A DNA stretch of 64,000 nucleotides from an uncultured Syntrophaceae bacterium (GCA_964597995.1 CAZRAC010000001.1:23556-87555); one strand, 5' to 3'. Counted from the stretch's first letter, positions 4,415-21,794 are shown. Notes: generated from the letters alone by a model not told the origin. A program made the numbers and translations.

Positions 4415-5179
4415 TCATCCGTCCCTTCCCCTCAGGAGGTTCACGAACCGCAGGTAAGGGCGCATCTGGGGAGTGCCGCCGCCTTCGGAAATGACCTGCA
4501 AGGTTTTTCCTGTGTCGGAGACGAGCGCCCCGCCGAGGTGGGTCACCGGCGTTCCGGCGAACACCTCGAGGCAAAGAGGTGTGGAGGGACCCAGGACCGC
4601 CACATGCCGGGGGCTTCCCAGTTCCTTCAGTGTTTCCTCCATCGTGCCGTTCAGGAGCGCCGTGGCCGTGATGACGGCGACCGTACAACTCCTCAGGATC
4701 GCCTTCCTTTCTTCTTCGTCGAGGAGCGGCATGCGCGCCGGGTTTCGCTCGATGACGTCGAGCAAGGCCCCCGAGGCCTTTATCTTCGGGACCAGGGGCG
4801 GGAAAAACCCCACCATGGCCACCCGGTCAGCGGGCGTCAGGTTCATGAGCTGCAGGGCGTCCTCTTCTTTTCCCCCCCGGATGCCCGTCTGGAGGATGGC
4901 GTTTGCGGTTGCAAGTCCGAGGGCGCTCTCTACCGGGTTTTTCGCCTCCAGGAGAAATCTCAGGAGGTCGGCTGCGGAGGAATTCGCCAGCCTTCCGGCG
5001 TAGGGGAAGCGCAGGCAGTCGCCGGTGACCCCGCTTAAGAACGTCGCCGCCAGGCCCATCCGGTCCTCGAACACCCGAACGCCGACATAGCAGATTCCGA
5101 TGCGTATATCCTGAACCGGTGTATCCGCGTCGCCGCAAACTCTCTCGTATATGCGCCTCAGTATCTCGCCCTTTTTCAT
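4415..5179 (-). CDS. DUF4213/DUF364 domain protein (putative Rossmann-like chelation domain)
   Basis: 254 aa. The N-terminal V.D.RIG..Y..V....G.GLA pattern and a C-terminal Rossmann-like half (VAMVGFFPPL) match my recollection of the DUF364 family. Confidence 0.6.
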   Translation of the reverse strand: MKKGEILRRIYERVCGDADTPVQDIRIGICYVGVRVFEDRMGLAATFLSGVTGDCLRFPYAGRLANSSAADLLRFLLEAKNPVESALGLATANAILQTGIRGGKEEDALQLMNLTPADRVAMVGFFPPLVPKIKASGALLDVIERNPARMPLLDEEERKAILRSCTVAVITATALLNGTMEETLKELGSPRHVAVLGPSTPLCLEVFAGTPVTHLGGALVSDTGKTLQVISEGGGTPQMRPYLRFVNLLRGRDG

Positions 5180-5243
5180 CGTCGGCCTCCCCCGAGGGTC
5201 TTTTGCGGGGGCATCTTAGCCCTTTTCCCCGGACCTTGCAACC

Positions 5244-5273
5244 GCATCCGTCGGTTCTGCATCCGTCGGTTCT
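5244..5273. repeat. Perfect tandem direct repeat, 2 x 15 bp (GCATCCGTCGGTTCT)
   Basis: Read directly from the sequence. It lies in the divergent intergenic region between the DUF364 gene (-) and the DUF4384 gene (+). Confidence 0.8.
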
Positions 5274-5357
5274 CACGCGGAATTCCTTGACTCCCTGCGG
5301 GATCGTCTGTAGGGTAAAACCATCGACTCACCGGTTCTTCGGGGAAGGAGGCTTGAG

Positions 5358-6221
5358 ATGAAGAAGGCGCTTCTCGTGGTTTTGCTGCTTGTCCTCACGG
5401 TTTCCCATGTCTATGCCGCCCAGTCCGCGATCACGGAGGCGGAGGGTTACGCCTGCCAGGGGGAGGACAAGTCGAGGAGGCAGACGGAGCAGGCCGCGAC
5501 GGCCGACGCGAAACGCAAGGCCATCGAGCAGGTCTCCGCGTATGTCACGAGTGAGACGGAGGTAAAGGATTTCACCCTCCAGAAGGACCTGGCCCAGGCC
5601 TACTCGCGGGCGACCGTCAAGGTCATCCAGGAGTTGGAGAAGGGGTGGTACCGGGATGCCTCCCTCGGCGATTGCTACCGGATAAAGGTCAAGGCCGAGG
5701 TGATCCCCGACGAACAGGAGATGATGGCGATTGCGAAGGGCAAGACGGCGGACGACCCATCGGCGCCGCTTTGCGTCCGGGTCTGGACGGACAAACAGGC
5801 CTACGGGGCGGGCGAGCGGGTCAAGGTCTACCTCAAGGGCAACAAGCCCTTCTATGCCACGATCCTTTATAGGGATGCCGGAGGGAAGCTCGTACAACTC
5901 CTCCCCAACCCCCACAGGAAGGACAACTACTTCAACGGCGGAGTCGTCTATGAGGTCCCCGCGGGCAACGACCGGTTCGAGTTGGAGGTGGCCCCGCCCT
6001 TCGGCGAGGAGCAGGTCATCGTCTATGCGGGCACCACCCCGCCGGGAGACGTAAGTGTAGTGGAGCGGGGCGGGGTGTACGAGGTCAAGACCCGGGCCTC
6101 CGAGGTCGGTGAACGGACACGGGGCGTCAAGCTCACCCAAAAACTCAGCGCTGCCGGTGCGGTAGCCGCGGAGTTCTTCGAGGGGAAGGCGACCCTGACC
6201 ACGGAAGGCAGTAAGCGATGA
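5358..6221 (+). CDS. Secreted DUF4384 domain protein
   Basis: Signal peptide MKKALLVVLLLVLTVSHVYA. The C-terminal half VRVWTDKQAYGAGERVKVYLKGNKPFYATILYRDAGGKLVQLLPN matches the DUF4384 pattern. The stop overlaps the next start (ATGA at 6218-6221). Confidence 0.7.
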   Translation: MKKALLVVLLLVLTVSHVYAAQSAITEAEGYACQGEDKSRRQTEQAATADAKRKAIEQVSAYVTSETEVKDFTLQKDLAQAYSRATVKVIQELEKGWYRDASLGDCYRIKVKAEVIPDEQEMMAIAKGKTADDPSAPLCVRVWTDKQAYGAGERVKVYLKGNKPFYATILYRDAGGKLVQLLPNPHRKDNYFNGGVVYEVPAGNDRFELEVAPPFGEEQVIVYAGTTPPGDVSVVERGGVYEVKTRASEVGERTRGVKLTQKLSAAGAVAAEFFEGKATLTTEGSKR

Positions 6222-9100
6222 AGAGACGATTCTGCGAAGTCTTGATTCTTTCTATCATCATTTTAGCGGTGGGGGCGTGTGCAGGGAAGCTGCCGACAGA
6301 GCCTACCTTAAGGATCGAGACGGGCATGCATTCCGCTCCCATAACGAGGATCGGCGTGGATGTCGGGAACCGCTATCTTGTCACGGGTTCTAACGACAAG
6401 ACAGTCCGGGTCTGGGAACTAGCGACGGGGAGGCTCTTGCAGACCCTGAGGCCCCCCATCGGCGGTGTAGATGAGGGAAAGATCTATGCCGTAGCCCTTT
6501 CTCCCGACGGAAGGACGGTCGCTGCCGCCGGTCAGACGGGGTATGAATGGGGTTGGAATGTCTCCATCTACTTTTTCGACCGCGCGAGCGGACGGATGAT
6601 TAAAAAGATGAGCGGACTGCCTCGGGTTATCTCAAACCTCACCTATTCCCGGAACGGAAGGTACATCGTCGCTGGTCTTGTGAGCAAAAAGGGCATCCGG
6701 GTCTACCGGACCACCGACTATAGACTTGTTTTGAAAGACAGAGATTATGGAGACTCATGTTACGGCGCCGACTTCGATAAAACAGGGCGGCTCGTGACGA
6801 CATCGTGGGATGGTTATGTCAGGCTTTATGCCAATGATTTCAAGCTAATCACGAAAGAGGAGGCACCCGACGGAAAGAGACCTCATGGGGTCAGCTTTTC
6901 CCCCGACGGCGCGAAGATCGCCGTCGGTTTTACTGATTCTACAAAGGTAGACGTCCTCTCCGGCGAAGACCTCTCCTACCTCTATTCCCCCGACACCGGC
7001 GACATCACAAATGGCAATATGTCAACGGTCTCCTGGTCTCAGGACGGAAGTTACCTTTATGCCGGAGGACGGGCGCAAAAGTTTGTGAATGAAGAATTGA
7101 AATGCATCACCCGCAAATGGCGCGATGAAGGTAGTGGGGGTTACGTGGACCTACCGGCGGCGGAAAACACGATCATGCAGATTATTCCCCTGCGATCCGG
7201 CGGCATCGTCTTTGGCTCCGCCGACCCTGCATTCGGCGTCTTCGATGCCTCAGACCGATTGGCGGTGTACAAAGGACCAGAGATTGCAGATTTAAGGGGT
7301 AATCGGGAAGGATTCCTCGTTTCCGATGACGGCGCTACCGTCCAATTTGGCTACGAACGATTCGGCAAATCATCGGCGAGATTCTCCGTATCCGAAAGGC
7401 TCCTGGAGCTGAATCCAGGCCCTTCCGATTCGCAGAACTTGAACCCCCCGGTGACTTCAACAGCAGACTTGAATATCGCCGACTGGAAAAATACTTATCA
7501 GCCGAAGTTAAGCGGCAGACCATTAAAACTGGAACAATACGAGATATCCCGCAGTCTCACCGTTTCCCCGGGGGGAAAGACCTTTCTCTTGGGGACAGAA
7601 TGGTATCTCCGCCTGTTCGACGGCGAAGGGACGGAGATATGGAAGGTTTCTATTCCGGATAGTGCAGGGGCCGTCAACGTCTCCGGTGACGGGAAGGTGG
7701 CTGTTGCTGCTATTGCTGACGGAACGATCAGGTGGTACCGGATGAAGGACGGGAAGGAGATTCTCGCGCTCTTTCCCCATAAAGACAGGAAACGCTGGGT
7801 CTTATGGACTCCCTCCGGTTACTACGACGCCGCCCCCGGCGCCGAGGAGCTCATCGGCTGGCACGTGAATAACGGCAAAGACGCCGCCGCCGACTTCTTT
7901 CCCGCGTCCCGGTTCAGGGCCGCCTACTACCGCCCCGACGTGGTGGCGAAAGTCATCGAGACGTTAGACGAGCGCGAGGCGGTAAGGCTGGCCGATGAGG
8001 AGTCGGGGAGGAGAAAACAGGCGGTCACCGTCCGGGAAATGCTTCCCCCTGTCGTAACGATCGTGAGCCCTGCCGACGGGGCCGAGGTCTCCATCCCGGA
8101 GGTGACGGTCAAGTTCAGCGTCCGTACCCCCTCCGGTGAGCCCGTGACGGCCGTAAAGGCGCTGGTGGACGGGAGGCCGGCGGCCGCCGAGCGCGGCGTG
8201 AAGATAGTAGAGAGGGAAGGGGATGTGCAGGAACTCCGGGTCACGATCCCGGAGAGGGACGTGGAGATCGCCGTGATCGCCGAGAATAGGTATACCGCGA
8301 GCGAACCGGCGACCGTTAGGGTTAGGTGGAAGGGTGCGCCGAGGGAAGAATTCGTCGTCAAACCCAGGCTCTATGTGCTCGCCGTCGGCGTCAGTAATTA
8401 CGCGGACAAGAGCCTGCGGCTTTCCTTCGCCGCCAAGGACGCCCGGGACTTTGTGACGGTCATGGATGTGCAAAAGGGCAGGCTGTACCGGGACGTTGTG
8501 GTAAAGGTCATGACCGATGAGGGTGCGACCAAGGACGAGATACTGGACGGCCTCGATTGGCTCCAGAAAGAGACGACGAGCAAGGATGTGGCGATGGTAT
8601 TTCTTGCCGGCCACGGGGTGAATGACCCGAGCGGGGTGTATTACTATCTTCCCGTCAATGCGGACACGGACCGGCTGAAGAGGACCGGCGTCGCCTTCTC
8701 GGACATCAAGAACACCGTCGCCTCCCTTGCCGGTAAGGCCGTTGTCTTTGTCGATACCTGCCATGCGGGCAGTGTCATGGGTGCGCGGAGGGGAGTGGCC
8801 GACATAACGGCTGTCGTCAATGAGCTGGCGAGCGCCGAAAACGGCGCCGTGGTCTTCGCCTCCTCTACGGGCAGGCAGTACGCCCTCGAGGATGCGGCAT
8901 GGGGTAATGGGGCGTTCACCAGGGCCCTCGTCGAGGGCATAGGCGGAAAGGCGGACTACACGGGCAAGGGCAAGATCACTGTGAATATGCTCGACCTCTA
9001 TCTCTCGGAGCGGGTGAAGGAGCTCACAAAGGGAAGACAGACGCCGACGACGACCAAGCCCCATACGGTCCCCGACTTCCCCATCGCCGTGACGAGGTGA
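6218..9100 (+). CDS. Exported WD40-repeat / Ig-like / peptidase C14 (caspase, orthocaspase) protein, probable lipoprotein
   Basis: 960 aa. Signal with lipobox-like AVGAC. WD40 repeats (VTGSNDKTVRVWELATG, SWDGYVRLY, ADGTIRWY). C-terminal caspase fold with His (FLAGHG) and Cys (VDTCHAG) dyad. Confidence 0.85.
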   Translation: MKRRFCEVLILSIIILAVGACAGKLPTEPTLRIETGMHSAPITRIGVDVGNRYLVTGSNDKTVRVWELATGRLLQTLRPPIGGVDEGKIYAVALSPDGRTVAAAGQTGYEWGWNVSIYFFDRASGRMIKKMSGLPRVISNLTYSRNGRYIVAGLVSKKGIRVYRTTDYRLVLKDRDYGDSCYGADFDKTGRLVTTSWDGYVRLYANDFKLITKEEAPDGKRPHGVSFSPDGAKIAVGFTDSTKVDVLSGEDLSYLYSPDTGDITNGNMSTVSWSQDGSYLYAGGRAQKFVNEELKCITRKWRDEGSGGYVDLPAAENTIMQIIPLRSGGIVFGSADPAFGVFDASDRLAVYKGPEIADLRGNREGFLVSDDGATVQFGYERFGKSSARFSVSERLLELNPGPSDSQNLNPPVTSTADLNIADWKNTYQPKLSGRPLKLEQYEISRSLTVSPGGKTFLLGTEWYLRLFDGEGTEIWKVSIPDSAGAVNVSGDGKVAVAAIADGTIRWYRMKDGKEILALFPHKDRKRWVLWTPSGYYDAAPGAEELIGWHVNNGKDAAADFFPASRFRAAYYRPDVVAKVIETLDEREAVRLADEESGRRKQAVTVREMLPPVVTIVSPADGAEVSIPEVTVKFSVRTPSGEPVTAVKALVDGRPAAAERGVKIVEREGDVQELRVTIPERDVEIAVIAENRYTASEPATVRVRWKGAPREEFVVKPRLYVLAVGVSNYADKSLRLSFAAKDARDFVTVMDVQKGRLYRDVVVKVMTDEGATKDEILDGLDWLQKETTSKDVAMVFLAGHGVNDPSGVYYYLPVNADTDRLKRTGVAFSDIKNTVASLAGKAVVFVDTCHAGSVMGARRGVADITAVVNELASAENGAVVFASSTGRQYALEDAAWGNGAFTRALVEGIGGKADYTGKGKITVNMLDLYLSERVKELTKGRQTPTTTKPHTVPDFPIAVTR

Positions 9101-9160
9101 TCGAGGCCTCCGCGAAATACGCTGAAGGGTGCTTTTGAAGGAGCGGCCGCCCGGCTACGG

Positions 9161-10273
9161 TCAGTTATTGAATACGCCTTTAATGCCCTCTACGCCCTTT
9201 TTGACACCCTCGGTGCCCGTCTTGATGACGGATTTTCCTATGTCTTTCACCGAAATGCCGAGTTTGTTGGCTACGGCAAGGGATAGCTTGTCGGCGACAC
9301 CTTCCCTGAGGCTGAACTTCGGGTTGTTTAGGTCACCTTCGAGGACAAAATTCACCGTAATCTCATTTTTATCGTTCTTGAGGGTGGCGACGGCAATCGA
9401 GAGCGGCACGCCGCGGAATTTGTTCCCAATGCCGGGGCCGCTCTTGAAATCGAGGTCCCGCAGCAGGGCCCGCCCCGGGGCATGGAGTTTCCGGGCACGG
9501 ACCTTCACGTCCATGTCGAGGTCGAGAAGTCCCCTGGTTATATTCACCCCTCTCTTCTGGAAGTAAGGCCTAAAGGGGATGATGTCGACATTGCGGACCT
9601 CGACCTTCGCTTCGGCATCTTCGATTTTCTCGTCTTTGAGTCTGACCTTCCCCTTGCTCTTTATCGTCCCTGAACTCTTGATGCCCGTGATAACGGCGCC
9701 CAGGGTGTACTGCGATTCGCCCCCGCCCGGCGGGAGGGCGACACCTTGAAGCTCTACGTCGATATCCCGCACCTTGATGAAAGCGGATCCCGCCCGCGGT
9801 TGCCGGTCGAGATAATCGAGAGAACCCTTTGTTATCAGGACCTTCTTGATAAGAAACGGAGGCAGAGGTTTCTTTTCCTTTCCTCCCTTTCCACCTTCTC
9901 CCGCCGGCAGTGAAGGATTTACCAGATTACCCCGGTGGTCTATTTCCATGAATACATAGGGTTCGTTGATGGTCAGGTGTGAGATGACGAAATCCCTTTT
10001 CAGCAGGCCTAAAAAGTCTGCCTGGATGGTCAGGCCGGCGGTCGTGAACACCGTTTTCCCCGCCTTGTTTTTGAGCTCGATATGGGAGGCCTTAACTTCT
10101 CCCCACGAAAGTCCGACCTCCTGAACGGAAAAAGCCCTCCCAAGGGCCGATTCGAGCTCTGCCTTGATAATCCTGTTGGCATTATGAAGGAGCAGAACCC
10201 CCGCCACAAAAACGATTGCGCTGAAAACAGCGAGGATAACCGCTACCTTCTTAAACCGTCTTCCCTTCCCCAT
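9161..10273 (-). CDS. Membrane-anchored DUF748/AsmA-like protein
   Basis: 370 aa. One N-terminal TM helix (VAVILAVFSAIVFVAGVLLL), repeated beta-rich segments, and a C-terminal GDLNNPKFSL motif as in DUF748. Confidence 0.5.
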   Translation of the reverse strand: MGKGRRFKKVAVILAVFSAIVFVAGVLLLHNANRIIKAELESALGRAFSVQEVGLSWGEVKASHIELKNKAGKTVFTTAGLTIQADFLGLLKRDFVISHLTINEPYVFMEIDHRGNLVNPSLPAGEGGKGGKEKKPLPPFLIKKVLITKGSLDYLDRQPRAGSAFIKVRDIDVELQGVALPPGGGESQYTLGAVITGIKSSGTIKSKGKVRLKDEKIEDAEAKVEVRNVDIIPFRPYFQKRGVNITRGLLDLDMDVKVRARKLHAPGRALLRDLDFKSGPGIGNKFRGVPLSIAVATLKNDKNEITVNFVLEGDLNNPKFSLREGVADKLSLAVANKLGISVKDIGKSVIKTGTEGVKKGVEGIKGVFNN

Positions 10274-10416
10274 CGAGCTTTTCCTTTTAGGTTTCAGATA
10301 GACAAACCTGACCCCTCTTCCTCCAGTGAAAGGCCTTATATCCCTTTTTTATCCCTATTTCAGTCAGTTTCTGCATCATGCGCAAGCCTGAATTGTCACC
10401 CTTCGATATTGAATAG

Positions 10417-11739
10417 ATGAGTAGGATCAGGTATAAAGGCGGCATGAACAAGCACCGGATTTTTATCGCCGATTCCCGCTCCATGAAGGATGTGCAGGAT
10501 CGGTCCGTCCACCTGGTGGTCACGTCGCCGCCTTACTGGCAGCTCAAGGACTACGACAGCGCCCGTCAGATTGGCTTTCACGACACCTACGAAGAATACA
10601 TCAACAACCTCAACCTCGTATGGAAGGAGTGCCATCGCGTACTGCACGACGGTTGTCGCCTCTGTGTCAACATCGGAGACCAGTTTGCCCGGTCCGTTTA
10701 TTACGGTCGATACAAGGTAATACCGATCAGGACCGAGATCATTAAATTTTGCGAAACCGTCGGGTTCGATTATATGGGGGCCATCATATGGCAGAAGGTG
10801 ACGACCTGCAACACGACAGGCGGCGCCACGGTCATGGGGTCGTACCCGTATCCGAGAAATGGGATCCTCAAGATCGATTACGAATTCATCCTGCTCTTCA
10901 AAAAGCCCGGGAATCCCCCACCTGTCGACAGAACGGCCAAAGAACAGTCCAGGTTGTCAGCAGAAGAGTGGAATGAATACTTCGCCGGCCACTGGCATTT
11001 TCCCGGGGAGAAACAGGATAAGCACCTGGCCATGTTTCCGGAAGAGCTTCCCAGGAGGTTGATCAGGATGTTCAGCTTTGTCGGGGACACGGTTCTCGAC
11101 CCCTTTTTGGGGAGCGGCACAACCTCTCTTGCGGCAAGGAAGCTGGAGAGGAACTCTGTCGGGTATGAGATCAACGAATCATTTCTACCGGTAATCAGGA
11201 AAAAGATAGGGGCCGACCAGCCGGATATTTTCAGCGAGACGGCTGTCGAAATCATCAAACCGGCAAGCCAACCTATCGATTACATGCAGGAAATAAAGAA
11301 ACTGCCCTATGTATTTCACGACCCGGTGCGCTTCGATAAGAAGGTAGATCCTCGGAAAATGACCTTCGGTTCCAAAATCGAAGCCGACGGAAACGGCAAC
11401 GAACAGTATCTACGCGTGAAACGCGTAATAACCCCCCACACGATGGAACTCACCAACGATGTAGTCATCAGGTTGATCGGTGTCGGGGCCAAGGCAGGCA
11501 AAGAACGGGAGGCCGTGGAGTGGTTGTGGGATAGACTGAAGGGGCAAAGGCTTTGCCTGAAATTCGACCAGACCAAGTATGACGAAGACAACCGTCTTCT
11601 CTCTTATCTGTACCTCAAAAACAAGACCTTCATCAATCTTCACTACCTTCGCTCCAATCTTGTCCGGTTGGACGAGACGTTCCCCTTCAAGTATCGCGAC
11701 AGGTTCAGGGCGATCCTTAAGGAGGAAATCGAGCCGTGA
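10417..11739 (+). CDS. Beta-class N4-cytosine/N6-adenine DNA methyltransferase fused to a degenerate SNase (thermonuclease)-like domain
   Basis: Motif IV VVTSPPYW lies N-terminal and motif I VLDPFLGSGTT lies C-terminal, which is the beta-class order. The C-terminal ~120 aa follows the SNase pattern (VIRLIGV..., LLSYLYL.NKTFIN) but lacks the catalytic GIDAPE-type residues. ATG 10444 is an alternative start. Confidence 0.8.
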   Translation: MSRIRYKGGMNKHRIFIADSRSMKDVQDRSVHLVVTSPPYWQLKDYDSARQIGFHDTYEEYINNLNLVWKECHRVLHDGCRLCVNIGDQFARSVYYGRYKVIPIRTEIIKFCETVGFDYMGAIIWQKVTTCNTTGGATVMGSYPYPRNGILKIDYEFILLFKKPGNPPPVDRTAKEQSRLSAEEWNEYFAGHWHFPGEKQDKHLAMFPEELPRRLIRMFSFVGDTVLDPFLGSGTTSLAARKLERNSVGYEINESFLPVIRKKIGADQPDIFSETAVEIIKPASQPIDYMQEIKKLPYVFHDPVRFDKKVDPRKMTFGSKIEADGNGNEQYLRVKRVITPHTMELTNDVVIRLIGVGAKAGKEREAVEWLWDRLKGQRLCLKFDQTKYDEDNRLLSYLYLKNKTFINLHYLRSNLVRLDETFPFKYRDRFRAILKEEIEP

Positions 11740-11772
11740 AAAAGCTCAGGATGCAGAGGCCTTCTAGCGAGA

Positions 11773-12513
11773 CTAAAACTCCTGGCGCGTTGGCCGAAAC
11801 AGGATCTCGTTCACATCCACGTCCTCCGGTTGGCTGATGGCGAAGGCGACCGCCCGGGCAAACGACTGGGCAGGAATCGCAACGTCATAGAGTCGACGCG
11901 AGGCCGCGGCGAAGTCAGGGTCGGTTATGCTGTTAGGCAGTTCCGTGGCTACTGCGCCCGGCGAAATCACGGTGGTGCGGATGTTGTATGGTTTGACTTC
12001 CTGCCGTAGTCCCTCCGATAGGGCCCGCACGGCGTGCTTGGTCGCTGCATAGACGGCGCCGCCGGGGCGTACCTTATGGCCCGCCACAGAGGAAACATTG
12101 ATGAAGTGTCCCGATTTTTGCTGCTTCATGTACGGCAGGGCGGCGGCAATGCCGTACAGCACGCCCTTTAGGTTCACGTCGACCATCCGGTCCCAGTCCT
12201 CGACCCTGAGGCGTTCAAGGAGCGACGACGGCATCAGCCCGGCGTTGTTGATCATGACATCGATGCGGCCGAACGTCTGCACGGCCGCGTCCACCAATGC
12301 CTTAACCTGGTCGACCTGGGTAACGTCAGTCACTACGGCGAGCGCCTTACCCCCGTTGGCAGTCAGCTCTTCTGCCAATGACCGGAGTCGGTCGGCACGC
12401 CGAGCGCCGAGCACGACGCTCGCACCTTGAGCGGAGAGCAACCGGGCAGCCGCCTCGCCCAACCCGCTGCTCGCGCCTGTGATCACAACGACTTTTCCTG
12501 CGATGTTATCCAT
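11773..12513 (-). CDS. SDR family oxidoreductase
   Basis: 246 aa. TGASSGLG cofactor motif, NNAG, catalytic YAATK. Confidence 0.85.
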
Positions 12514-12554
12514 GGAACCTCCTTCTGCATCTCTTCTCGATCCTGATCAATCTT

Positions 12555-12708
12555 GACGTCCCCGTAAAAAGTCCAAAAACGTCATGCCGGACTTGATTAA
12601 GCCTGCCCCGTACTCGATACGGGGGCATCCAGAACATATTGAATATACTGGATTCCGGCGTTCGCCGGAATGACGAAACGCGTAATTCTCGACTTTTTAC
12701 GAGTCCAT
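12555..12708 (-). mobile_element. MITE-like element, long (154 bp) variant, copy B
   Basis: Reverse complement reads identically to copy A. Flanked by perfect 7-bp direct repeat CAATCTT (12548-12554 and 12709-12715). Confidence 0.8.
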
Positions 12709-12758
12709 CAATCTTTATTCGGTGTCTAAAAAACCCTTGACCCGTATGAACGACCTCG

Positions 12759-13271
12759 TCATGTCTCCTTCAAGACCAGGCTCAAAACGGTGGTCAGCTT
12801 GACCACGTCCTCATCCGCTTTTCGCAGCCGCGACCCCATGATCTTCGCCAGATTCAGGATTACCTTGAATCCCAGCTCAGGGTTGCTCTCTGCCAGCCTC
12901 AAAAAGGCGTCTCTCCGAATCTCGTATAGGAGGCAATCCGAAATGGCCCGGACCGTCGCCGTTCGCTCCGACTCTTCCAGCAGAGCGACCTCTCCGAAGA
13001 TAGAATGGTTTTCAGCTTCCAGCTTTGTGAAGACTTTGCTTTTTTGGTCAGAATCGTCATCGAAGCCTTTCATGGTCAACCTCTTGACCACCTCCACCGA
13101 CCCCTCGAGGATGATATACATGGTGTCGCCTGTCTTGCCTTCTTCCATGATGATGTCATCCTTGCGGAAGGCGACTTTTCCGGCGATGGTCAAGAACGTT
13201 CGAACCTGATCGGCCGTTAAACCCTGGAACAGGCCGGTTTTTGCAAGGGCGCTCATCAATTCGTCCGTCAT
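12759..13271 (-). CDS. Stand-alone cyclic nucleotide-binding domain protein
   Basis: 170 aa. LFQGL..., GDTMYIILEGSVEV and FGEVALL....RTATVRA are the canonical cNMP-binding motifs. Confidence 0.8.
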   Translation of the reverse strand: MTDELMSALAKTGLFQGLTADQVRTFLTIAGKVAFRKDDIIMEEGKTGDTMYIILEGSVEVVKRLTMKGFDDDSDQKSKVFTKLEAENHSIFGEVALLEESERTATVRAISDCLLYEIRRDAFLRLAESNPELGFKVILNLAKIMGSRLRKADEDVVKLTTVLSLVLKET

Positions 13272-13339
13272 TTTTTCCCCGACCTTCCTTGTGACCGGCG
13301 ATCCTCTGTCTCTCCCATATGCTGTCGTCGGCTCTAAGA

Positions 13340-14509
13340 CTACGATTCCGGGGACGACAGAATCACGGCATGGTCATCGGCTGTGATGACATGGTGGTCA
13401 TCGGGATTGATGATGACCTTCGTCGCCTCCTCGCGTTGCAACACGCCCTTGTTGGACGCCTTGAGTTTTTCCCGTATGAAGAGGTCGATAGCCGAGGTGT
13501 CGTCGCTCAGTACGTCCTCAACCTTGACCCCCTGCGATTCCTTCAGGAGGCCGATCAAAATCGCCTTCCGCTTGCCGCGGTAATACGCCGAAAGTTCTCC
13601 GAAGGTATGGCCGACGTATTGTTTCGGTATCTCGTCCCGCTTCAACATTCCCGCACCTTCAAAGGATAAAAGACCGGCATACACCTTGGAGAGACCCGGC
13701 GACCGCACGGCACCGGCAAGAAGAGACCCTATGTGTTCCCCCCTGACGATTATTTCATCTACATTGGCGCGCTTAAGGTGAGGCTTGCTTTCCCCGTCGA
13801 GAAGCTCGGCGATGACCTTGATCTTCGGCGCCAGGGACTTGACGGCCAAGGCACCCAGGATCGTCCTGTCGTCCGCCCTATCCCTGGGATGGGTCCCGGA
13901 AAAGTCGGCCATGATGAGCGCAAATCCGGCCCTCGTGATATTCGCCCTCAAGAGGACCTCCTCATGAACGAAGTCGCCCCTCAAGAAGATGACGTTCTGT
14001 TTTCCATACTTTGCCCGCAGAATGTCCATCTCGTCGATGGGAAGCTCATTGATCAAGACGATGGGCAAGCTACCCGACGTCCCGGCAGTCAGCCCCCGTA
14101 TGACTTCTTCGGTGTTGTTGTTCCAGCCGCAGACGACGATGTGCCCCTTATCCTTGATGGTTTCCAATCCCTTCCCCTCCTTTATCTTTTGCTCCACAAG
14201 GACGGACGCAACGGTCGCCGTCAACATGGACAGCAGTCCAATGCCCGAAATCATCAAGAAGATCCCGATAATCTTTCCCGCAAACGACAGGGGGACTTTA
14301 TCGCCGTACCCCACGGTGCAGATGGTCACGAAGGCCCACCACACCCCGTCCCAGATAGAATGTATGGTGGCGGCATCCATATGGCGTTCCGCGTAAAAAA
14401 CGCCGACCGAGGCAATGATGATGACGGCGAGCGTTATGGGCGCGACGAAGAAGAAACGCTCTTTTGCTAGAGCCTTCGTGACCGTCCTGGTCTTCGCAAC
14501 AAGTTTCAT
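13340..14509 (-). CDS. Potassium channel with RCK/TrkA-N domain
   Basis: 389 aa. Two TM helices around the selectivity filter TVGYGD, then a Rossmann-like HIVVCGWNN RCK domain. Confidence 0.85.
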   Translation of the reverse strand: MKLVAKTRTVTKALAKERFFFVAPITLAVIIIASVGVFYAERHMDAATIHSIWDGVWWAFVTICTVGYGDKVPLSFAGKIIGIFLMISGIGLLSMLTATVASVLVEQKIKEGKGLETIKDKGHIVVCGWNNNTEEVIRGLTAGTSGSLPIVLINELPIDEMDILRAKYGKQNVIFLRGDFVHEEVLLRANITRAGFALIMADFSGTHPRDRADDRTILGALAVKSLAPKIKVIAELLDGESKPHLKRANVDEIIVRGEHIGSLLAGAVRSPGLSKVYAGLLSFEGAGMLKRDEIPKQYVGHTFGELSAYYRGKRKAILIGLLKESQGVKVEDVLSDDTSAIDLFIREKLKASNKGVLQREEATKVIINPDDHHVITADDHAVILSSPES

Positions 14510-14728
14510 GGGTCAATCCGGTGGGAACGGTGCCGATTTGCCGTCAGTATACAAATCTTCTTGCGTATGACACCCATTCAATTCAGGACATGTTGATTTC
14601 ACCAGTTACCTATTTTTTACGGCGAAAGTAACGACGAGTCGAGTCCCGTGCCTTCAAGCCCGGGACTCGAACGACTTGTCCGGCTCTTACTTGACTTTGC
14701 AGCTTTTGCATTCAGATCCAAAAACTTC

Positions 14729-15094
14729 TTATTTCGTCTTTCCAACAAAGGTTGCATTCACTTTACGCTGTGCGTCTGTCTTTTCGCCCGCTTTGCGGTA
14801 GGCTGCTGCTTTGAGCTCCGGCGAACCTTCGTACATGCTGCAGCTTGCTTCGCTCTTAGCATAATCAGGGTGTGACCTGGGAATGCCGAGTGGCGGCAAC
14901 TTTGCTAACGCGGCCATGCAGACCTCATACGGGGTTTTTCCCGGCATGCTCGGCTTCATCTCGGCATACTTTTTCTCCAGTTCCTGCTGACGGGCTGACT
15001 TCTTAATGACGACGGGTTTCATCTGCGACAGGTCCAATGCAAACGCGTTTGATGCAAAGACAACAATTACAACGATCACAGCGAGCTTTTTCAT
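14729..15094 (-). CDS. Small secreted hypothetical protein
   Basis: 121 aa. Signal peptide MKKLAVIVVIVVFASNAFA. No recognisable domain. Confidence 0.5.
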   Translation of the reverse strand: MKKLAVIVVIVVFASNAFALDLSQMKPVVIKKSARQQELEKKYAEMKPSMPGKTPYEVCMAALAKLPPLGIPRSHPDYAKSEASCSMYEGSPELKAAAYRKAGEKTDAQRKVNATFVGKTK

Positions 15095-15129
15095 ATTAAC
15101 TCCTTTCTTTTCAGGTTTTTACTAAATCC

Positions 15130-16404
15130 CTATTTTCCCCTCGACGGAAGTGCGACCGGTTTAAAGATATCTTTTGTCATAGTATCGGGGCGGAAAGATG
15201 GGTCCATATTCAGTTTAGGCATGCTTGGGATACGAGCGTTCTTATCGACTTTCATCACAAAGGGGGCAGATTTTATCGCCGAGAGTAGCTGACTCCCCAC
15301 GAGAACAAAATGGCCGTCCATAGTCTCATCCATATCGTAACCGCAATATCTTACCCGAGGTTCTCCGAGCATCCTTACCCATTCCATGGTGCCCATCCGA
15401 TCCAGTTTGATTACGAGCAAGTAATCTTGGCAAAAGAGCACATACGCCCCGCCGTCATCGGCAGGACAGGCAGAGGCACGCCCCGTGACACCGCCTCGGT
15501 CCCATAGCCATTTCCCTTCAGCATCCAGTTTGATTACGAACCCCTTGATAACACCCAATGTCGTCCCACCACTCACGATGATACCTCCGTCACGGGTACA
15601 TACAATGGATTGAACGACATCTGATGAATTTTTCCCGAAAGAGCTATATCCCCGCTGCCAGACCACGGTTCCCGCGGCATCTAATTTGGCGACTCGCAGA
15701 CCTTCCCCACTTTCAATCGCCGTATAGGCAAACAAGTAATGATGATCCGGAGTTTCGGTAAGGGCGCTTCCTTCGTATTGGGCACTCTCCAAAAATGTTT
15801 CCCACACCACGTTCCCTTGTTTATCCAGCTTGATCACCCAGCCGGTATCGCGGTTGCGGGCTTTATTAAATCGGCTTCCTCCAAAAACACACCCGCCGTC
15901 CGCTGTGGCTGCAAGGGCATTGCCGTACCACGTAACCTCTTTCCCAAATTCCTTCTCCCAGATGACCCTCCCCGTATCGTCCATTTTGATGACGCGCAAT
16001 CCGTCCCGAAGGGAATTTCCCTCTGCGAGGTTCTTGCAAGCCAGAACGAAGATGCTTCCATCAGGCCCCAGGCGCACGTTATAGAAACTACTGCCATGTA
16101 TAGCCTTGGGGAAAGTTCTCTCCCACAGCTTGTCGCCTCGGGCATTCAACCGTAACACCCACAGGTTGGGTGGCGGGAATTTAGAGGCGAAAGCGTACCC
16201 GACCGCCACGCATCCCCCGTCGGCCGTGTGAGACACGGCATACAATACTTTGAAATTAGGGCCGCCGAATGTCTTGAACCATGTCGTAGTTGCGGGAGGT
16301 GCCGATACCTTCGCTTTCTTTTGCGCCCCCATGGATGAGCTCGCACCTAAGACAAACACACACACCCCAAGGACTATACAGATTACGAACGCTGCTCGCT
16401 TCAT
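15130..16404 (-). CDS. Secreted seven-bladed beta-propeller protein (SBBP-like repeats)
   Basis: 424 aa with a signal peptide. Seven ~45-aa repeats of the form T.DGG.v..G....g.vIKLD..G..vWe (for example TADGGCVAVGY..VLRLNARGDKLWE and TRDGGIIVSGG..VIKLDAEGKWLWD). Confidence 0.6.
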   Translation of the reverse strand: MKRAAFVICIVLGVCVFVLGASSSMGAQKKAKVSAPPATTTWFKTFGGPNFKVLYAVSHTADGGCVAVGYAFASKFPPPNLWVLRLNARGDKLWERTFPKAIHGSSFYNVRLGPDGSIFVLACKNLAEGNSLRDGLRVIKMDDTGRVIWEKEFGKEVTWYGNALAATADGGCVFGGSRFNKARNRDTGWVIKLDKQGNVVWETFLESAQYEGSALTETPDHHYLFAYTAIESGEGLRVAKLDAAGTVVWQRGYSSFGKNSSDVVQSIVCTRDGGIIVSGGTTLGVIKGFVIKLDAEGKWLWDRGGVTGRASACPADDGGAYVLFCQDYLLVIKLDRMGTMEWVRMLGEPRVRYCGYDMDETMDGHFVLVGSQLLSAIKSAPFVMKVDKNARIPSMPKLNMDPSFRPDTMTKDIFKPVALPSRGK

Positions 16405-16664
16405 ATGGACCTTCCTCCCTCAGTCATTACGTTCAAAAAAATAAAGCCTGTTTAACAGTGTGTATACCATATCATAACAAGTAGTTACAAGCGGCCTAAG
16501 AAGTACTTACCCTCATAGCTATGGTAATTTTGGGGCTGTAAGGGCATTCGCAATGCCCCCCAGTCTACAAGGGGACGGTCCACTTTGCCCGCTTTATACT
16601 TGACACGCTCCTCTATTCTGTCATATTTCTGAACACAAAACTCAGCAGAAAGGAGGTTATTGTT

Positions 16665-17078
16665 ATGAAAAGAGTATTTTTACTTGTTTTTTGCTGTGTA
16701 TTATTTGTCCCGGTGATTGCAAGTGCAGTAGAACGCCCGCCAGACGGGACGGTAAGGGTTTATCGCGATTCTCTGTGCAAAACAGGACCTCAGTCAACTT
16801 TTGCTAGTACTTTAACCGGCTCAGCAGACGGGAAATATCCAAGCCTGGTAAATTTTCCACAACATGACGAGAATGGTTCGCAAATACCCGGAAGCACCTG
16901 GAATGACCAGATTTCATGCCTGACGATTGGTGGGGGCATCAAAGAAGTCGTTATTTACGAGAATGTCAACTTCAAAGGGAAAAGCAAAACACTGAAGAGG
17001 AAAGATGGCTGGGTCTGGAGCTTTGGCGGCGACTGGTGGAACGACCGCATCAGCTCCTTTAAGATTATTGCACAGTAG
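16665..17078 (+). CDS. Secreted beta/gamma-crystallin-like domain protein
   Basis: 137 aa with a signal peptide. Greek-key motifs VRVYRDSLCKTG..., IYENVNFKGKSKTL and WWNDRISSFKI. Confidence 0.55.
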   Translation: MKRVFLLVFCCVLFVPVIASAVERPPDGTVRVYRDSLCKTGPQSTFASTLTGSADGKYPSLVNFPQHDENGSQIPGSTWNDQISCLTIGGGIKEVVIYENVNFKGKSKTLKRKDGWVWSFGGDWWNDRISSFKIIAQ

Positions 17079-17259
17079 ACATTCCCTTCGCGTCCTCCAG
17101 AAAACCCGAGATATGCAAAGATATAACACCGGTGTGGTGTCGGAAAGACATCGCACCGGTGTTTGCACTTTGATGTTGTAAAACTTAACCTCTTCCCAGG
17201 CAGTCAGCTTCTCTCCCGTGATGATGCCTAAGCTACCTCATTTGCCGCGTGCTCTTTGA

Positions 17260-17442
17260 CTAACTTACCCGCTTCGATCGTTTCAATGAGCCTTCTTCGG
17301 GTCTTCTTCCCATGTTGCGATAACCCCGGTGAGGCCTCTCGTAATTGTAATGATAGAGCCACTTGTCCAGGTCTTCCTGAAGCTCCTCGACCGAGGTATA
17401 GAACTTTTCCCTGTGGGTCTCCCCGCTGCTTAACTTGTCCGT
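17260..17442 (-). pseudogene. C-terminal remnant of an rve/DDE-type (IS481/IS3-like) transposase
   Basis: Minus-strand frame reads TDKLSSGETHREKFYTSVEELQEDLDKWLYHYNYERPHRGYRNMGRRPEEG..* . The W..YN.ERPH tail is typical of integrase-core transposases. The frame is closed by a stop 5' of it and has no start or catalytic core. Confidence 0.6.
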
Positions 17443-17471
17443 CTAAGCCTCTCCCCACCCGTCATATCTCC

Positions 17472-18380
17472 TTAGCCCTTCAGAAAATCCGGATCCCGGT
17501 ACGCCGGGTTGGGATAGGTATAAAAACCACGGCCGGTTTTTACTCCCAGCCAACCTTTGTCAACATACTCCTTTTTCAAGAATTCCGCGTTCTTGCGGCT
17601 CTGTTGGTTGTCGCGGTTAACATTCGATGATTCCGCAATGTGCAATGCGGTATCCAGGCCGACATCATCCAGCATGCCGAGGGGTCCGACGGGCATTTTC
17701 ATGATCCCCATCCAGGCACGATCCACATCGTGCACCGACGCGACACCATTGGCGACCAGGGCAATCGCGGCAGCGTTCAGGGAACTGTACATAGCGTTGA
17801 AAATATACCCATGATTCTCCTTGCGGAGAACCATGGGTATCTGATTGATGGAGCGGGCGAAATCGCGGACCAGCGTTACAACTTCCGTCGCGGTTCCGGG
17901 ATGGGGCATTATATCGGCCACATTCCCGACCCAGACAGGTTGGTGGAAATGAAACGCGAGGAATCGCTCAGGACGGCCGGTGGCTTCGGCGACAACCGAC
18001 GGAACCAGCAGGGATGTATTGGTGGTGAAAATGGTCCGGCCTGGGCACAGCTCGTTGAATCGGGCAAGTACCTTCCTCTTCAGGGCAGGATCTTCCGGAA
18101 TCGATTCGCTGAGCAGGTCCGCCTCCCGGGCCGCTTCCGCCTCGTCGGTCGTGGCTGCAATCCCGGCAAGGGCTTTTTCGGCAGCCCGCTTCTCCAGGTA
18201 GCCGCCGGTGACGAGATTGTCGGCATAGGCGGCCAGCCGCCGAAGAGAAAGTTCCAAGGCAGCTTCATCAATGTCGTAGAGAGTGACTTCGTAGCCGTGG
18301 GCCGCGCACTGGAAGGCGATCTGCCGGCCCATCGTCCCGCCGCCGACAATCAGCACTTTCCTGATATCTTTCAGTTCCAT
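17472..18380 (-). CDS. hbd: 3-hydroxyacyl-CoA (3-hydroxybutyryl-CoA) dehydrogenase
   Basis: 302 aa. NAD motif VLIVGGGTMGRQIA. The order of the 3HCDH N- and C-terminal domains is recognisable. Confidence 0.85.
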   Translation of the reverse strand: MELKDIRKVLIVGGGTMGRQIAFQCAAHGYEVTLYDIDEAALELSLRRLAAYADNLVTGGYLEKRAAEKALAGIAATTDEAEAAREADLLSESIPEDPALKRKVLARFNELCPGRTIFTTNTSLLVPSVVAEATGRPERFLAFHFHQPVWVGNVADIMPHPGTATEVVTLVRDFARSINQIPMVLRKENHGYIFNAMYSSLNAAAIALVANGVASVHDVDRAWMGIMKMPVGPLGMLDDVGLDTALHIAESSNVNRDNQQSRKNAEFLKKEYVDKGWLGVKTGRGFYTYPNPAYRDPDFLKG

Positions 18381-18776
18381 TGAATCGCTCCTTTCGTTTG
18401 GGGCAATGGCAATAGAAGAACTGCGTATGTCTAACGCTCTGGAAATTCGTTTGCCGAAAATCTCCCGGTTTTGGTCCCACGCTTATAGCCTGAAAATTTT
18501 AATCGTTCGGAGGCAGGGGGGCCATTTACATCATATTTATCAAGGGGCTCCTTAAGCGCCCACCCCGATTTTGGGCTGCCTTGGCATGGATGACCCTTAT
18601 CACCCTTTTTCTCCTCATGCGAATGCAAATATGTAAAGGGCGTCTCCATCCCGCGTCCACATTGTCGTCTACGCTGGCCCAGGAAGTCCATTTTCTACCT
18701 TTGCCTAACTCTTGACGTCACCCGGAGCCAACTTTTTCGGCGATCGGGTTCACGCGCTTGTTGTACGGTCCTTTTC

Positions 18777-21700: not shown

Positions 21701-21794
21701 ATACCTTGACAATACTGCCTCCCTTGCCTTTCTTGATAGCGGTGATTTCCTGGTCAAGGGCTATGATAAACTCGTTGATAATGGTTGAAGGCAT
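18777..21794 (-). CDS. SF1 (Upf1/DNA2-like) helicase fused to a PLD-family nuclease and zinc fingers; Mokosh type II-like candidate defence protein
   Basis: 1005 aa. Zn ribbon CGNCG..CGRCKHE. Walker A GPPGTGKT. A ~200-aa coiled-coil insert. ILDEASM, TQYRM, VHRFQGGE and ITRAK helicase motifs. PLD motif HQKVAIIDD..GSLN. C-terminal topoisomerase-type finger CPEPGCGG..GCSNY..KKCRY. The locus is AT-richer than its flanks. Confidence 0.85.
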   Translation of the reverse strand: MPSTIINEFIIALDQEITAIKKGKGGSIVKVFNGCFLRRVSGLFIYVFNLENFLAVLDDSPAEIDIRGKRYSAQVLLTQGLEVEIGIEQFCGQHIAEAKLQTNMWYLLELLKNKFTELNDGTAPAISEILLSGKTAAIPGFENLVPCGNCGTVNRMTNYISSRSPICGRCKHEIRPQCSVSVRPPNEAQKRAITASFFSQTAVIWGPPGTGKTKAIAQAIEAHLHAGRRVLLVSHANAAVDEALEDVAEQLKATSFYTDGKLVRLGIPQSSHSKRLENYPLVLLDKIANHLGESLSKEKRELEEQKTEFDAKLAQYETLIYAIYAVRTLSSELSAFSSELSQLSDKLSATTRELSELETRQRKNRERLIEAQSSGSIKRFFKGLDPRKIQREIDQTSVTVDSRKRLLKEITERLVILEELMVTKDAEVKKAKVLADRLLSAAGVSEAEIESSKKEIEAKILAILSRIAEINHELDEITKKILSEARLIATTLTKTFTAKQFPDAPFDVLILDEASMAPLPHLYWAASKCRGYVTIVGDFLQLPPICIAQEAMAQKWLGRSIFSVLGIDQVKKAVRDDRVTLLDTQYRMAPDISVIPNKFFYQGMLKDAPATNNGSPDDGIATQSLVLVETAGMNPWCSRLSTGGRFNLYNALLCCTIAKKIISNIHDGRVGIIAPYAAQARLINKIAKDWGILDRIRTSTVHRFQGGEEPIIIFDTVEGSGTKVAPMLDDTKPDSDARLLLNVAITRAKDRFYLVAHTKHLLSDLHGDSVLSGIIHHFYGNAQQIPSGSLVDSYFTSDFERWATAFLSTGGHYNPDLGQMYTEKNFWAQFFQDVIRSQQRLIILSPFLSVRRSSNFMDYFRVMKERGIDIRVYTRPRNQQTGEMANQADIVIDQLRSIGVMVIERRSMHQKVAIIDDTIAWEGSLNILSHKDTAEHMRRFEGQSTIEEIIRNLELDEDMPSGKQTGEPCPEPGCGGYLVVRSKYGRKFLGCSNYAKKKCRYTKSL

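Follow-up and report, generated by a model that had tools for sequence, protein, structure and literature searches.

Bacterial homologues of caspases are numerous, nearly all of them are uncharacterised, and discussion of them is dominated by cytoplasmic roles in death and defence. Two reports of 2012 bear on export: one described prokaryotic caspase homologues that have a transmembrane (TM) or signal segment at the N-terminus and are suspected to be extracellular (PMC3501461), the other a secreted caspase-YARHG protein of Bradyrhizobium (PMC3355149). The DUF4384 domain ranks high among the accessory domains found in cyanobacterial orthocaspases (23 of 473; PMC8283722), occurs also in trypsin-pseudo-orthocaspase proteins and in kinases (PMC6426788, bioRxiv 10.1101/2025.01.12.632604), and forms the C-terminal domain of one group of Csx30 proteins, Csx30 being the substrate of the TPR-CHAT protease Csx29 (bioRxiv 10.1101/2022.08.17.504292). 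Peptidase_C14-DUF4384 and Pkinase-DUF4384 fusions have already been catalogued (PMC8283722, PMC7475262, PMC6426788, bioRxiv 10.1101/2025.01.12.632604), and the combination of a FecR-domain protein with a CHASE2 sensor is a described operon theme, as in the BiofilmReg operon of Burkholderia (PMC5192318). Here we describe a gene pair from a 64,000-nucleotide stretch of DNA of an uncultured Syntrophaceae bacterium (GCA_964597995.1, CAZRAC010000001.1:23556-87555; hereafter the window), in which gene A encodes a DUF4384 protein of 287 amino acids (aa) and gene B a WD40/immunoglobulin (Ig)-like/caspase protein of 960 aa.

The reading we favour, with moderate confidence, is that A and B are translationally coupled in one operon, B encoding a cysteine protease that is Sec-exported to the periplasm and A its partner or recognition module. 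An earlier note on this DNA had set the exported caspase/DUF4384 pairing apart from the bacterial caspases usually discussed. In view of the published reports (PMC3501461, PMC3355149, PMC8283722, PMC6426788, bioRxiv 10.1101/2022.08.17.504292) that novelty was overstated, and A/B is an uncharacterised variant of already catalogued exported caspases and DUF4384-caspase fusions. None of the cited caspase and DUF4384 papers treats the B family, the split A/B operon, the Lpp20-like domain of A or the FecR/CHASE2/CHAT context described below.

Like the orthocaspases (MEROPS C14, Microcystis MaOC1; PMC3501461, PMC6426788, PMC8283722), B has a C14 fold with the AGHG and D-x-C-H-S/A-G dyad motifs, conserved Asp residues at the putative S1-pocket positions, and WD40 repeats, the commonest accessory domain in surveys. 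It differs from them in that its propellers precede the caspase domain and that a predicted signal peptide stands at the head of the whole protein; no member of the ~960-aa class has been studied, and the family consensus scores under the cutoff of the sole specific NCBIfam caspase model that it matches. The caspase-YARHG protein of Bradyrhizobium shares with B a signal peptide, a C14 domain and an extracellular accessory domain, neither protein being characterised; the accessory domains differ, YARHG in the former and WD40, Ig and a DUF4384 partner in the latter. The C14-DUF4384 and Pkinase-DUF4384 fusions (here P0345, P0291 and P0355) and A alike have a DUF4384 domain with an R-G motif and an AEF tail, whereas A of the window is encoded on its own, upstream of the protease gene and coupled to it in translation, appears to be secreted and has an additional, possibly Lpp20-like N-domain.

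Three further systems resemble the pair in part. The type III-E Craspase (Csx29/Csx30) likewise combines a clan-CD protease with a separately encoded protein, which in one Csx30 group ends in DUF4384, and relatives of A pair with TPR-CHAT proteins. Craspase itself is cytoplasmic and RNA-guided, whereas A and B both begin with predicted signal peptides and no cas genes lie at the locus; the 64-kb window contains no CHAT match, and the surroundings of A/B are DUF364, DUF748 and DNA methylase genes, so that the pair is not a type III-E Craspase. The FecR-CHASE2 operon (PMC5192318) finds a counterpart in clusters L001, L005 and L166, where an exported FecR protein and a CHASE2 sensor flank A/B, yet its output in Burkholderia is a histidine kinase and in the A/B clusters an adenylate/guanylate cyclase, and the window has neither FecR nor CHASE2. 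Apaf-1 and the bacterial STAND-WD40-caspase proteins resemble B in its tandem seven-bladed-like propellers and caspase-fold protease; unlike them, B has no NB-ARC/NACHT NTPase, no CARD, and a predicted extracytoplasmic topology.

Gene layout and probable export

The features of the pair are given below by position in the window, with the basis of each in brackets (AF2, AlphaFold2 model; ORF, open reading frame; pLDDT, predicted local distance difference test; SPase I, signal peptidase I).

5341..5352, + strand: Shine-Dalgarno-like GGGAAGGAGG ahead of the gene A start (read in the sequence)
5358..6221, + strand: gene A, predicted exported 287-aa protein with putatively Lpp20-like N-domain and DUF4384 (ORF, Pfam, homologues)
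5358..5417, + strand: signal peptide of A, aa 1-20, with predicted SPase I cut between VYA and AQS (core 3.7, conserved mature start)
5427..5705, + strand: N-terminal alpha/beta domain of A, aa 24-116, with invariant C33 (5454-5456) and C106 (5673-5675) (AF2, alignment)
5802..6041, + strand: DUF4384 beta-sandwich of A, aa 149-228 (Pfam, Foldseek)
6048..6167, + strand: low-confidence loop of A, aa 231-270, with [RK]253-T254-R255-G256-[VI]257; R255-G256 at 6120-6125 (pLDDT <50)
6168..6218, + strand: C-terminal strand of A, aa 271-287, with near-invariant E272-F273 (AF2, alignment)
6218..6221, + strand: start/stop overlap ATGA of A and B, pointing to translational coupling; ATG of B at 6218-6220, TGA of A at 6219-6221 (read in the sequence)
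6218..9100, + strand: gene B, predicted exported 960-aa protein with double propeller, Ig-like part and caspase domain (ORF, Pfam, AF2)
6218..6283, + strand: signal peptide of B, aa 1-22, with putative SPase I site A20-C21-A22 before G23, including V18-G19-A20-C21 (6269-6280) (family consensus)
6305..7837, + strand: tandem beta-propellers of B, aa 30-540 (Pfam WD40, AF2, Foldseek)
7841..8041, + strand: helical linker of B, aa 542-608 (AF2 secondary structure)
8048..8329, + strand: Ig-like beta-sandwich of B, aa 611-704 (AF2; Big_7 sub-threshold)
8372..9058, + strand: Peptidase_C14 domain of B, aa 719-947, with D741 (8438-8440), H799 (8612-8614), D846 (8753-8755) and C848 (8759-8761) (Pfam, NCBIfam, alignments)
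8786-8794, + strand: R857-R858-G859 of B (low-pLDDT loop aa 851-863)

The gene coordinates, the 960-aa size and the ATGA overlap are all as the earlier note had given them. The genes on either side, for DUF364/DUF4213 (4415-5179) and for DUF748 (9161-10273), lie on the opposite strand, convergent or divergent to A/B, so that within the window the pair is an isolated two-gene operon. In 5000-9400 no sigma-70-like promoter turned up, and the promoter/terminator scan of that interval was discarded since its signal did not exceed that of shuffled sequence. The order LGT, Pyr_redox, AMP-binding, DUF364, A, B, DUF748 is shared with locus L165 (79% identity); as this synteny is kept, the pair is chromosomal and vertically inherited in the window's lineage. 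The best named relative is a Syntrophobacterales metagenome-assembled genome (MAG).

The N-terminus of A reads MKKALLVVLLLVLTVSHVYA up to AQS and that of B MKRRFCEVLILSIIILAVGACA up to GKLP, and both leaders combine a basic n-region with a strong hydrophobic core (maximum Kyte-Doolittle 10-mer 3.7 in A and 3.5 in B). Among homologues of A the leader varies and the mature start AQSTITE.EGYAC is almost invariant. In the B class a variable leader is followed by a conserved A-[FYW]-A, the cut, and G-E-P-P-x-E-P-I-L-R-I-E-T-G-M-H, and a hydrophobic leader core is present in 98 of 99 homologues of the ~960-aa class. The invariant C33/C106 pair of A fits a periplasmic disulfide. In other proteins an A-like module lies C-terminal to a cytoplasmic Ser/Thr kinase and a TM helix (P0291, P0355) or after a TIR-TM-PASTA arrangement (P0336), architectures that place the module on the extracytoplasmic side. 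Each companion of the pair in fuller clusters (FecR, TPR-CHAT, C14-FGE-sulfatase, a second WD40 protein, CHASE2 cyclase) has a signal peptide, lipobox or TM segment at its N-terminus. On the strength of the conserved signal peptides, the invariant Cys pair of A and the position of the A module behind a TM segment in the kinase and TIR fusions, A and B are very likely exported from the cytoplasm, and the proposal that both products begin with signal peptides was borne out by leader features and their conservation.

The same proposal had gone further and read a lipobox-like AVGAC in B as a possible outer-membrane tether. The sequence L-A-V-G-A-C is present in B of the window and in its two nearest relatives (P0001 and P0002, 93-94% identity), and V18-G19-A20-C21 fits a PROSITE-style lipobox pattern. 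A 79% identical relative, P0003, has AAAYA before GEPP where B of the window has AVGACA before GKLP; a lipobox-like match occurs in only 8 of the 99 proteins of the ~960-aa class, and the position of C21 is F, Y or W across the class, with Cys in 4 of ~94 sequences. On the simplest reading C21 is the -2 residue of the conserved SPase I A-x-A site, and from these alignments B of the window is more likely a soluble periplasmic protein than a lipoprotein; lineage-specific lipidation of window B is possible. That B would be an outer-membrane-tethered surface lipoprotein protease, with A as its secreted substrate or inhibitor, could draw on this motif in three close sequences, on the lipobox-like SC(T/S)QP found in 14 of 22 B variants of 1300-1400 aa, unlike the ~960-aa class, and on TPR-CHAT partners of A that carry ...VIPGC. 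Given the loss of the Cys in P0003, the few matches in the class, the place of C21 two residues before the A-x-A cut ahead of G, and the lack of a lipobox in A, it is unlikely. The AVGAC motif is thus present as claimed, whereas lipoprotein or outer-membrane tethering as a trait of the family did not hold.

Association of A with B

Whether the two proteins belong together can be read in part from gene fusions. P0241 (1412 aa) and P0249 (1472 aa) consist of a signal peptide, a whole A-like module (46-50% identity), WD40 repeats and a terminal Peptidase_C14 domain; P0317 has the same architecture and is N-terminally truncated. None of the three has a second hydrophobic leader at the A/WD40 junction, and the order of modules equals the operon order, A then B. 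As read from protein architecture, such fusions are Rosetta-stone evidence for joint action of A and a WD40-caspase. In P0345 a signal-peptide caspase precedes the A module, and the module is found as well in the kinase fusions P0291 and P0355 and behind TIR-TM-PASTA in P0336, a TIR-PASTA-DUF4384 architecture that hints at envelope surveillance. In P0328 the N-domain of A alone is fused to TPR.

Gene neighbourhoods were surveyed from both sides. For B, one genome per GTDB species (185,579 species genomes) was scanned, which gave 499 relatives, and the best 80 loci were used, with 51-70% identity over ~930-960 residues. Of the 118 same-strand neighbours of B, 15 have DUF4384, more than any other Pfam family; extra C14/WD40 proteins (8), CHASE2 (6) and cyclase (5) follow. 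A combined DUF4384 profile puts such a gene directly beside B and in the same orientation at 14 of 80 loci, and no more than 5 kb away at 21. An orthologue of A itself flanks B in ~10 of 79 loci (directly upstream in 6, directly downstream in 2-3), so adjacency is patchy; on this count the initial expectation of universal A-B adjacency was dropped, and domain-level, reciprocal and fusion evidence was used instead.

For A, a scan of metagenomes gave 80 loci, one being the 100% identical source contig. The 99 immediate same-strand neighbours of A include 23 Peptidase_C14, ~18 WD40 and 11 CHAT with TPR, and where an A locus has 1 kb or more of sequence on each side (35 loci), a caspase or CHAT gene is adjacent in 17 and within 5 kb in 25. 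In three of the apparent exceptions Pfam identifies the neighbour as a C14-FGE-sulfatase, a TPR protein or a WD40 protein, the last two truncated. The survey of DUF4384-caspase adjacency suggested in the earlier note hence has a divided outcome, patchy for orthologues next to B and reciprocal from the side of A (17 of 35).

Where A and B are adjacent (19 pairs), the order is A-then-B in 16 and B-then-A in 3, and a 4-nucleotide overlap is present in 9 of the 16 A-then-B pairs from other genomes; A-then-B order with a 4-nucleotide overlap recurs beyond chance. Across the 19 pairs, which include a few near-duplicate loci, the distance matrices of A and B correlate with r = 0.85 (Mantel p ~5e-4), and mean divergence is 0.34 versus 0.33. 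Taken together, the fusions, DUF4384 as the top neighbour of B, the reciprocal association and the co-divergence make it likely, with high confidence, that A and B are functional partners. A dedicated DUF4384 partner had been proposed: the fusions and the correlation of 0.85 argue for a genuine partner, whereas ~10 of 79 loci, together with pairings of A with TPR-CHAT and C14-FGE-sulfatase proteins, argue against a strictly dedicated one.

These data bear also on a simpler account, in which B is a degradative periplasmic peptidase for nutrients or protein quality control, gated by its propeller, and A an unrelated neighbour. Propeller-gated peptidases are known, namely prolyl oligopeptidase and tricorn, and B often occurs without A. 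The A-WD40-caspase fusions, the coupled genes and the reciprocal association speak against it; moreover, the recurrent neighbours are signalling proteins, not transporters, and 50-70% identity over 950 aa across phyla better fits a specific partner or target. We regard it as quite unlikely.

Variants of the arrangement occur in several lineages. Among the loci counted with the combined DUF4384 profile are some of Acidobacteria, where a divergent DUF4384 protein of 315-353 aa is encoded directly upstream of B and is itself preceded by a Pkinase-DUF4384 gene. In four loci of Acidobacteriota (L067, L070, L074, L083) a Pkinase-DUF4384 gene, a divergent DUF4384 protein of 315-327 aa and a WD40-caspase orthologue of B follow one another, with one or more further WD40 proteins in tandem after B in L070 and L074; the divergent partner in these four and in L077 also shows G-[STA]-R as a conserved motif of the C-terminal linker. 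In L110, L112 and L114 a DUF4140/DUF4139 protein lies directly downstream of A, and in these three and L159 a caspase-domain gene is found 1.6-1.7 kb downstream of A.

Domain structure and catalytic residues

The domains that the earlier note had named were recovered: Pfam matches give DUF4384 in A and WD40 plus Peptidase_C14 in B, and its Ig-like segment appears as a beta-sandwich at aa 612-704 of the AF2 model of B (28-sequence alignment, pLDDT 83.5), though Big_7 at aa 611-654 scores 20.9 bits, below the cutoff of 24.1. The WD40/beta-propeller matches of B lie at aa 35-274 and ~471-524, and the best Foldseek matches of the propeller half are double seven-bladed propellers, namely 2ymu, Aip1 (1nr0) and Apaf-1 (3shf). 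A group of longer B relatives (P0006-P0035, 1300-1400 aa, ~50% identity) has a ~400-aa insert without domain assignment between the propellers and the caspase domain. An NCBIfam PQQ-associated propeller model and a PADLOC HEAT-ARM match were set aside as noise.

The Peptidase_C14 match (PF00656, aa 719-947) has E 2e-15 and 57.3 bits against a cutoff of 21.4, over profile positions 3-225 of 233, and in the model an alpha/beta caspase-type domain spans aa 717-958. The His/Cys dyad is intact, as had been claimed, and backed by alignment: none of 121 aligned homologues deviates at H799 (FLAGHG) or C848 (VDTCHAG), nor does any member of the curated 28-sequence alignment, and in the model the two residues lie at the C-terminal ends of strands 791-802 and 841-849. 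AGHG and D-T-C-H-S/A-G are the metacaspase/orthocaspase versions of the dyad motifs. Searches of the caspase domain against the PDB with a single sequence or an 8-sequence profile returned as top matches Mcr-1/2 phosphoethanolamine transferases, through a spurious ...DHG... similarity, and were rejected; TbMCA2 and GSU0716 appeared there only marginally (E 0.2-0.9) and were not used as evidence for the dyad. Foldseek with the whole B model was uninformative on this domain, as the WD40 propellers swamped the output.

D741 and D846 are likewise invariant in B homologues, D846 standing two residues before C848. In an hhalign comparison with an approximate reference sequence of Yca1 (probability 46%), K-D741-A falls on N-D-A of CINDA and AGHG on SGHG. 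Two S1-pocket Asp residues, Asp95 and Asp211 in TbMCA2, of which Asp211 precedes Cys213 by two, account for the preference of metacaspases for basic P1 residues (PMC6426788). Because D741 and D846 appear to occupy these positions, B is predicted to cleave after Arg or Lys. Ten residues past C848, in a low-confidence loop, R857-R858-G859 has the form [RK]-R-G and resembles the R255-G256 motif of A. Caspases are themselves cut in the linker that corresponds to this loop, and B may undergo autoprocessing at R857/R858.

Could the pair still be a cytoplasmic, Apaf-like death or anti-phage effector, its N-terminal hydrophobic segments not being export signals? The double WD40 propeller does resemble that of Apaf-1, there is weak similarity to the PADLOC 'caspase' and caspase_w_EACC1 models, and some loci of B relatives sit amid toxin-antitoxin genes. 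However, Pfam finds no NB-ARC, NACHT or other NTPase domain in B; its score against the NCBIfam model NF047832 (caspase, EACC1-associated) is 82.9 bits under a cutoff of 140, and the PADLOC match is partial (E 1e-8, model positions 1-167 of 453) and assigns no defence system. The leaders are conserved with their A-x-A site, A has its invariant Cys pair, its module appears extracytoplasmic in the kinase and TIR fusions, and the locus lies within conserved housekeeping synteny. A cytoplasmic effector is therefore highly improbable.

Protein A has more than 1500 homologues at ~60% identity, and a phmmer search against 1.84 billion cluster representatives gave 1944 cluster representatives at E<=1e-3. 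Its DUF4384 domain (PF14326, aa 149-228) matches with E 7e-23 and 80.9 bits against a cutoff of 27, over profile positions 2-81 of 81. No NCBIfam model matches A, PADLOC-DB gives no match of any kind, and a VirB8 match under its cutoff (E 1.6e-3) was dismissed as chance. The AF2 model, built on a 66-sequence alignment and of moderate quality (pLDDT 67), comprises an alpha/beta domain (aa 24-116), a beta-sandwich (aa 140-225), a low-confidence loop (aa 231-270) and a final strand (aa 273-283), which is predicted to pack back onto the sandwich. C33 and C106 of the alpha/beta domain are the sole two invariant Cys residues in the 66 sequences. This domain has a Foldseek match to Helicobacter pylori Lpp20 (5ok8; prob 1.0, template-modelling (TM) score 0.43-0.52, E 3e-3), weak and from a pLDDT-67 model; Pfam gives the N-domain no match, the Lpp20 family included. 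The DUF4384 sandwich matches the alpha2-macroglobulin domain MG2 (2p9r; TM score 0.52-0.58, root-mean-square deviation 3.3-3.7, E ~5e-3) and complement MG domains as well.

In the loop of A, all 121 sequences have R255, and 112 of the 121 have G256. Fusions of the module to kinase, TIR or C14 domains keep both the R-G and the AEF tail motif, as do A orthologues paired with CHAT proteins. One account of the motif makes A a bait-type inhibitor or pseudosubstrate that silences the caspase, its R255-G256 loop sitting in the active site in imitation of R858-G859 of B. An [RK]-x-R-G-[VI]-like motif is conserved in low-confidence loops of both proteins, the DUF4384 fold resembles macroglobulin MG domains, and translational coupling would yield stoichiometric production. 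Retention of the motif in kinase, TIR and CHAT contexts nevertheless downgrades specific loop mimicry, an MG-like sandwich is a generic fold and the fold matches are weak, and many B orthologues have no adjacent A, so that this account is improbable.

Fuller clusters, proposed mechanism and meaning

The best 80 B loci come from many lineages, among them Nitrospirota, Desulfobacterota, Acidobacteriota, Spirochaetota, Verrucomicrobiota, Chlorobi-like bacteria, Gammaproteobacteria, Deferribacterales and Geomonas, and the A/B pair is widespread in sediment and groundwater bacteria. Given this distribution, B orthologues on short contigs of MAGs labelled Candidatus Bathyarchaeia (L027) and Enterobacteriaceae (L014) are probably mis-binned.

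In two Nitrospirota loci (L001, L005) the order is FecR, (TPR), A, B, CHASE2-guanylate/adenylate cyclase. The fullest version seen is that of the cultured Dissulfurispira thermophila (L166, AP022873.1 933426-954292), where a six-gene run on the + strand, with genes at 8927-20867, encodes FecR, DUF4384 (A), WD40-caspase (B), CHASE2-guanylate/adenylate cyclase, TPR-CHAT and a second exported WD40 protein, all beginning with a signal peptide or TM segment. In L140 a Crp-type regulator with a cyclic-nucleotide-monophosphate-binding domain (7192-7938) lies directly upstream of A, and a CHASE2 cyclase ~3 kb away. Literature searches for CHASE2 with FecR and CHAT, and for CHASE2 with CHAT, found no paper describing the larger FecR/CHASE2/CHAT cluster. 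Locus L003 (Thermodesulfovibrio sp. TK110) has a gene for a 23S rRNA intervening-sequence protein (9352-9828) between a 1067-aa TPR protein and B, an 818-aa second caspase after B, and GNA1162-like and FlgT_N domain proteins with TPR nearby, and no adjacent orthologue of A.

We propose that A and B act together, probably as a periplasmic complex, in which B would be an Arg/Lys-specific cysteine protease and A a DUF4384/Lpp20-like recognition module. The A module would provide ligand or target recognition for the protease, as an extracytoplasmic sensor module. Because the module sits extracytoplasmically behind Ser/Thr-kinase or TIR domains elsewhere, a role of A as sensor or targeting subunit is a plausible if tentative suggestion. 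A itself might be a substrate, cleaved at the invariant R255-G256 of the disordered loop; the Csx30 group with DUF4384 offers, by analogy, a precedent for a DUF4384 protein as the substrate of a clan-CD protease, and cleavage of A at R255 is conceivable but doubtful. As the fuller clusters add FecR, CHASE2 cyclase and TPR-CHAT, their gene content points to periplasmic proteolytic signalling, with probable output through cyclic nucleotides, and the pair of the window would be its reduced two-gene core. A still bolder scheme would have an envelope or extracellular cue sensed by the propeller and the DUF4384/Lpp20-like module, upon which the caspase would cut DUF4384 at Arg-Gly, in A and in the kinase and TIR ectodomains, and so feed through the FecR/CHASE2 cyclase and a cyclic nucleotide to Crp, an extracytoplasmic counterpart of a caspase cascade; as a whole this is decidedly improbable.

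Several points weigh against a periplasmic protease-partner pair and the roles assigned to its members. About 59 of 80 B loci have no DUF4384 gene within 5 kb, so that B can apparently function without an adjacent A. Shared species phylogeny contributes to the correlation of A and B distances. The export calls rest on leader heuristics and conservation among homologues. The Foldseek matches of A are coherent but weak, all with E > 1e-3, and come from a model of pLDDT 67. Kinase and TIR fusions, which need no caspase partner, keep the R-G and AEF motifs as well; these may thus belong to the module as such, and R-G may serve its structure or bind a ligand instead of being a site of cleavage. As for a signalling output, no CHASE2, FecR, CHAT, second A or second B copy is found across the 64-kb window.

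Elsewhere in the window, a gene at 10417-11739 (+) for a 440-aa N6/N4 DNA methyltransferase with a ~180-aa C-terminal extension is missing from the syntenic L165 and looks inserted beside the DUF748 gene. Two helicases, one an AAA_11/AAA_12 protein of 1005 aa that ends in a PLD nuclease domain (18777-21794, -), the other of the SNF2 family with 795 aa (35098-37485, -), look defence-like and are unrelated to A/B.

For the window, the outcome is a well-supported annotation and a corrected call on localisation, a modest practical result. For the family it reaches further: in a field centred on the cytoplasm, the B family apparently works outside it, and its partner module doubles as an ectodomain of kinases and TIR proteins. 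Dissulfurispira thermophila, which is cultured and carries the complete cluster, is a good experimental entry point. If the partnership is true, it would provide the first functional handle on DUF4384, and a protease-partner pair open to test, for which a candidate cleavage site is already defined.

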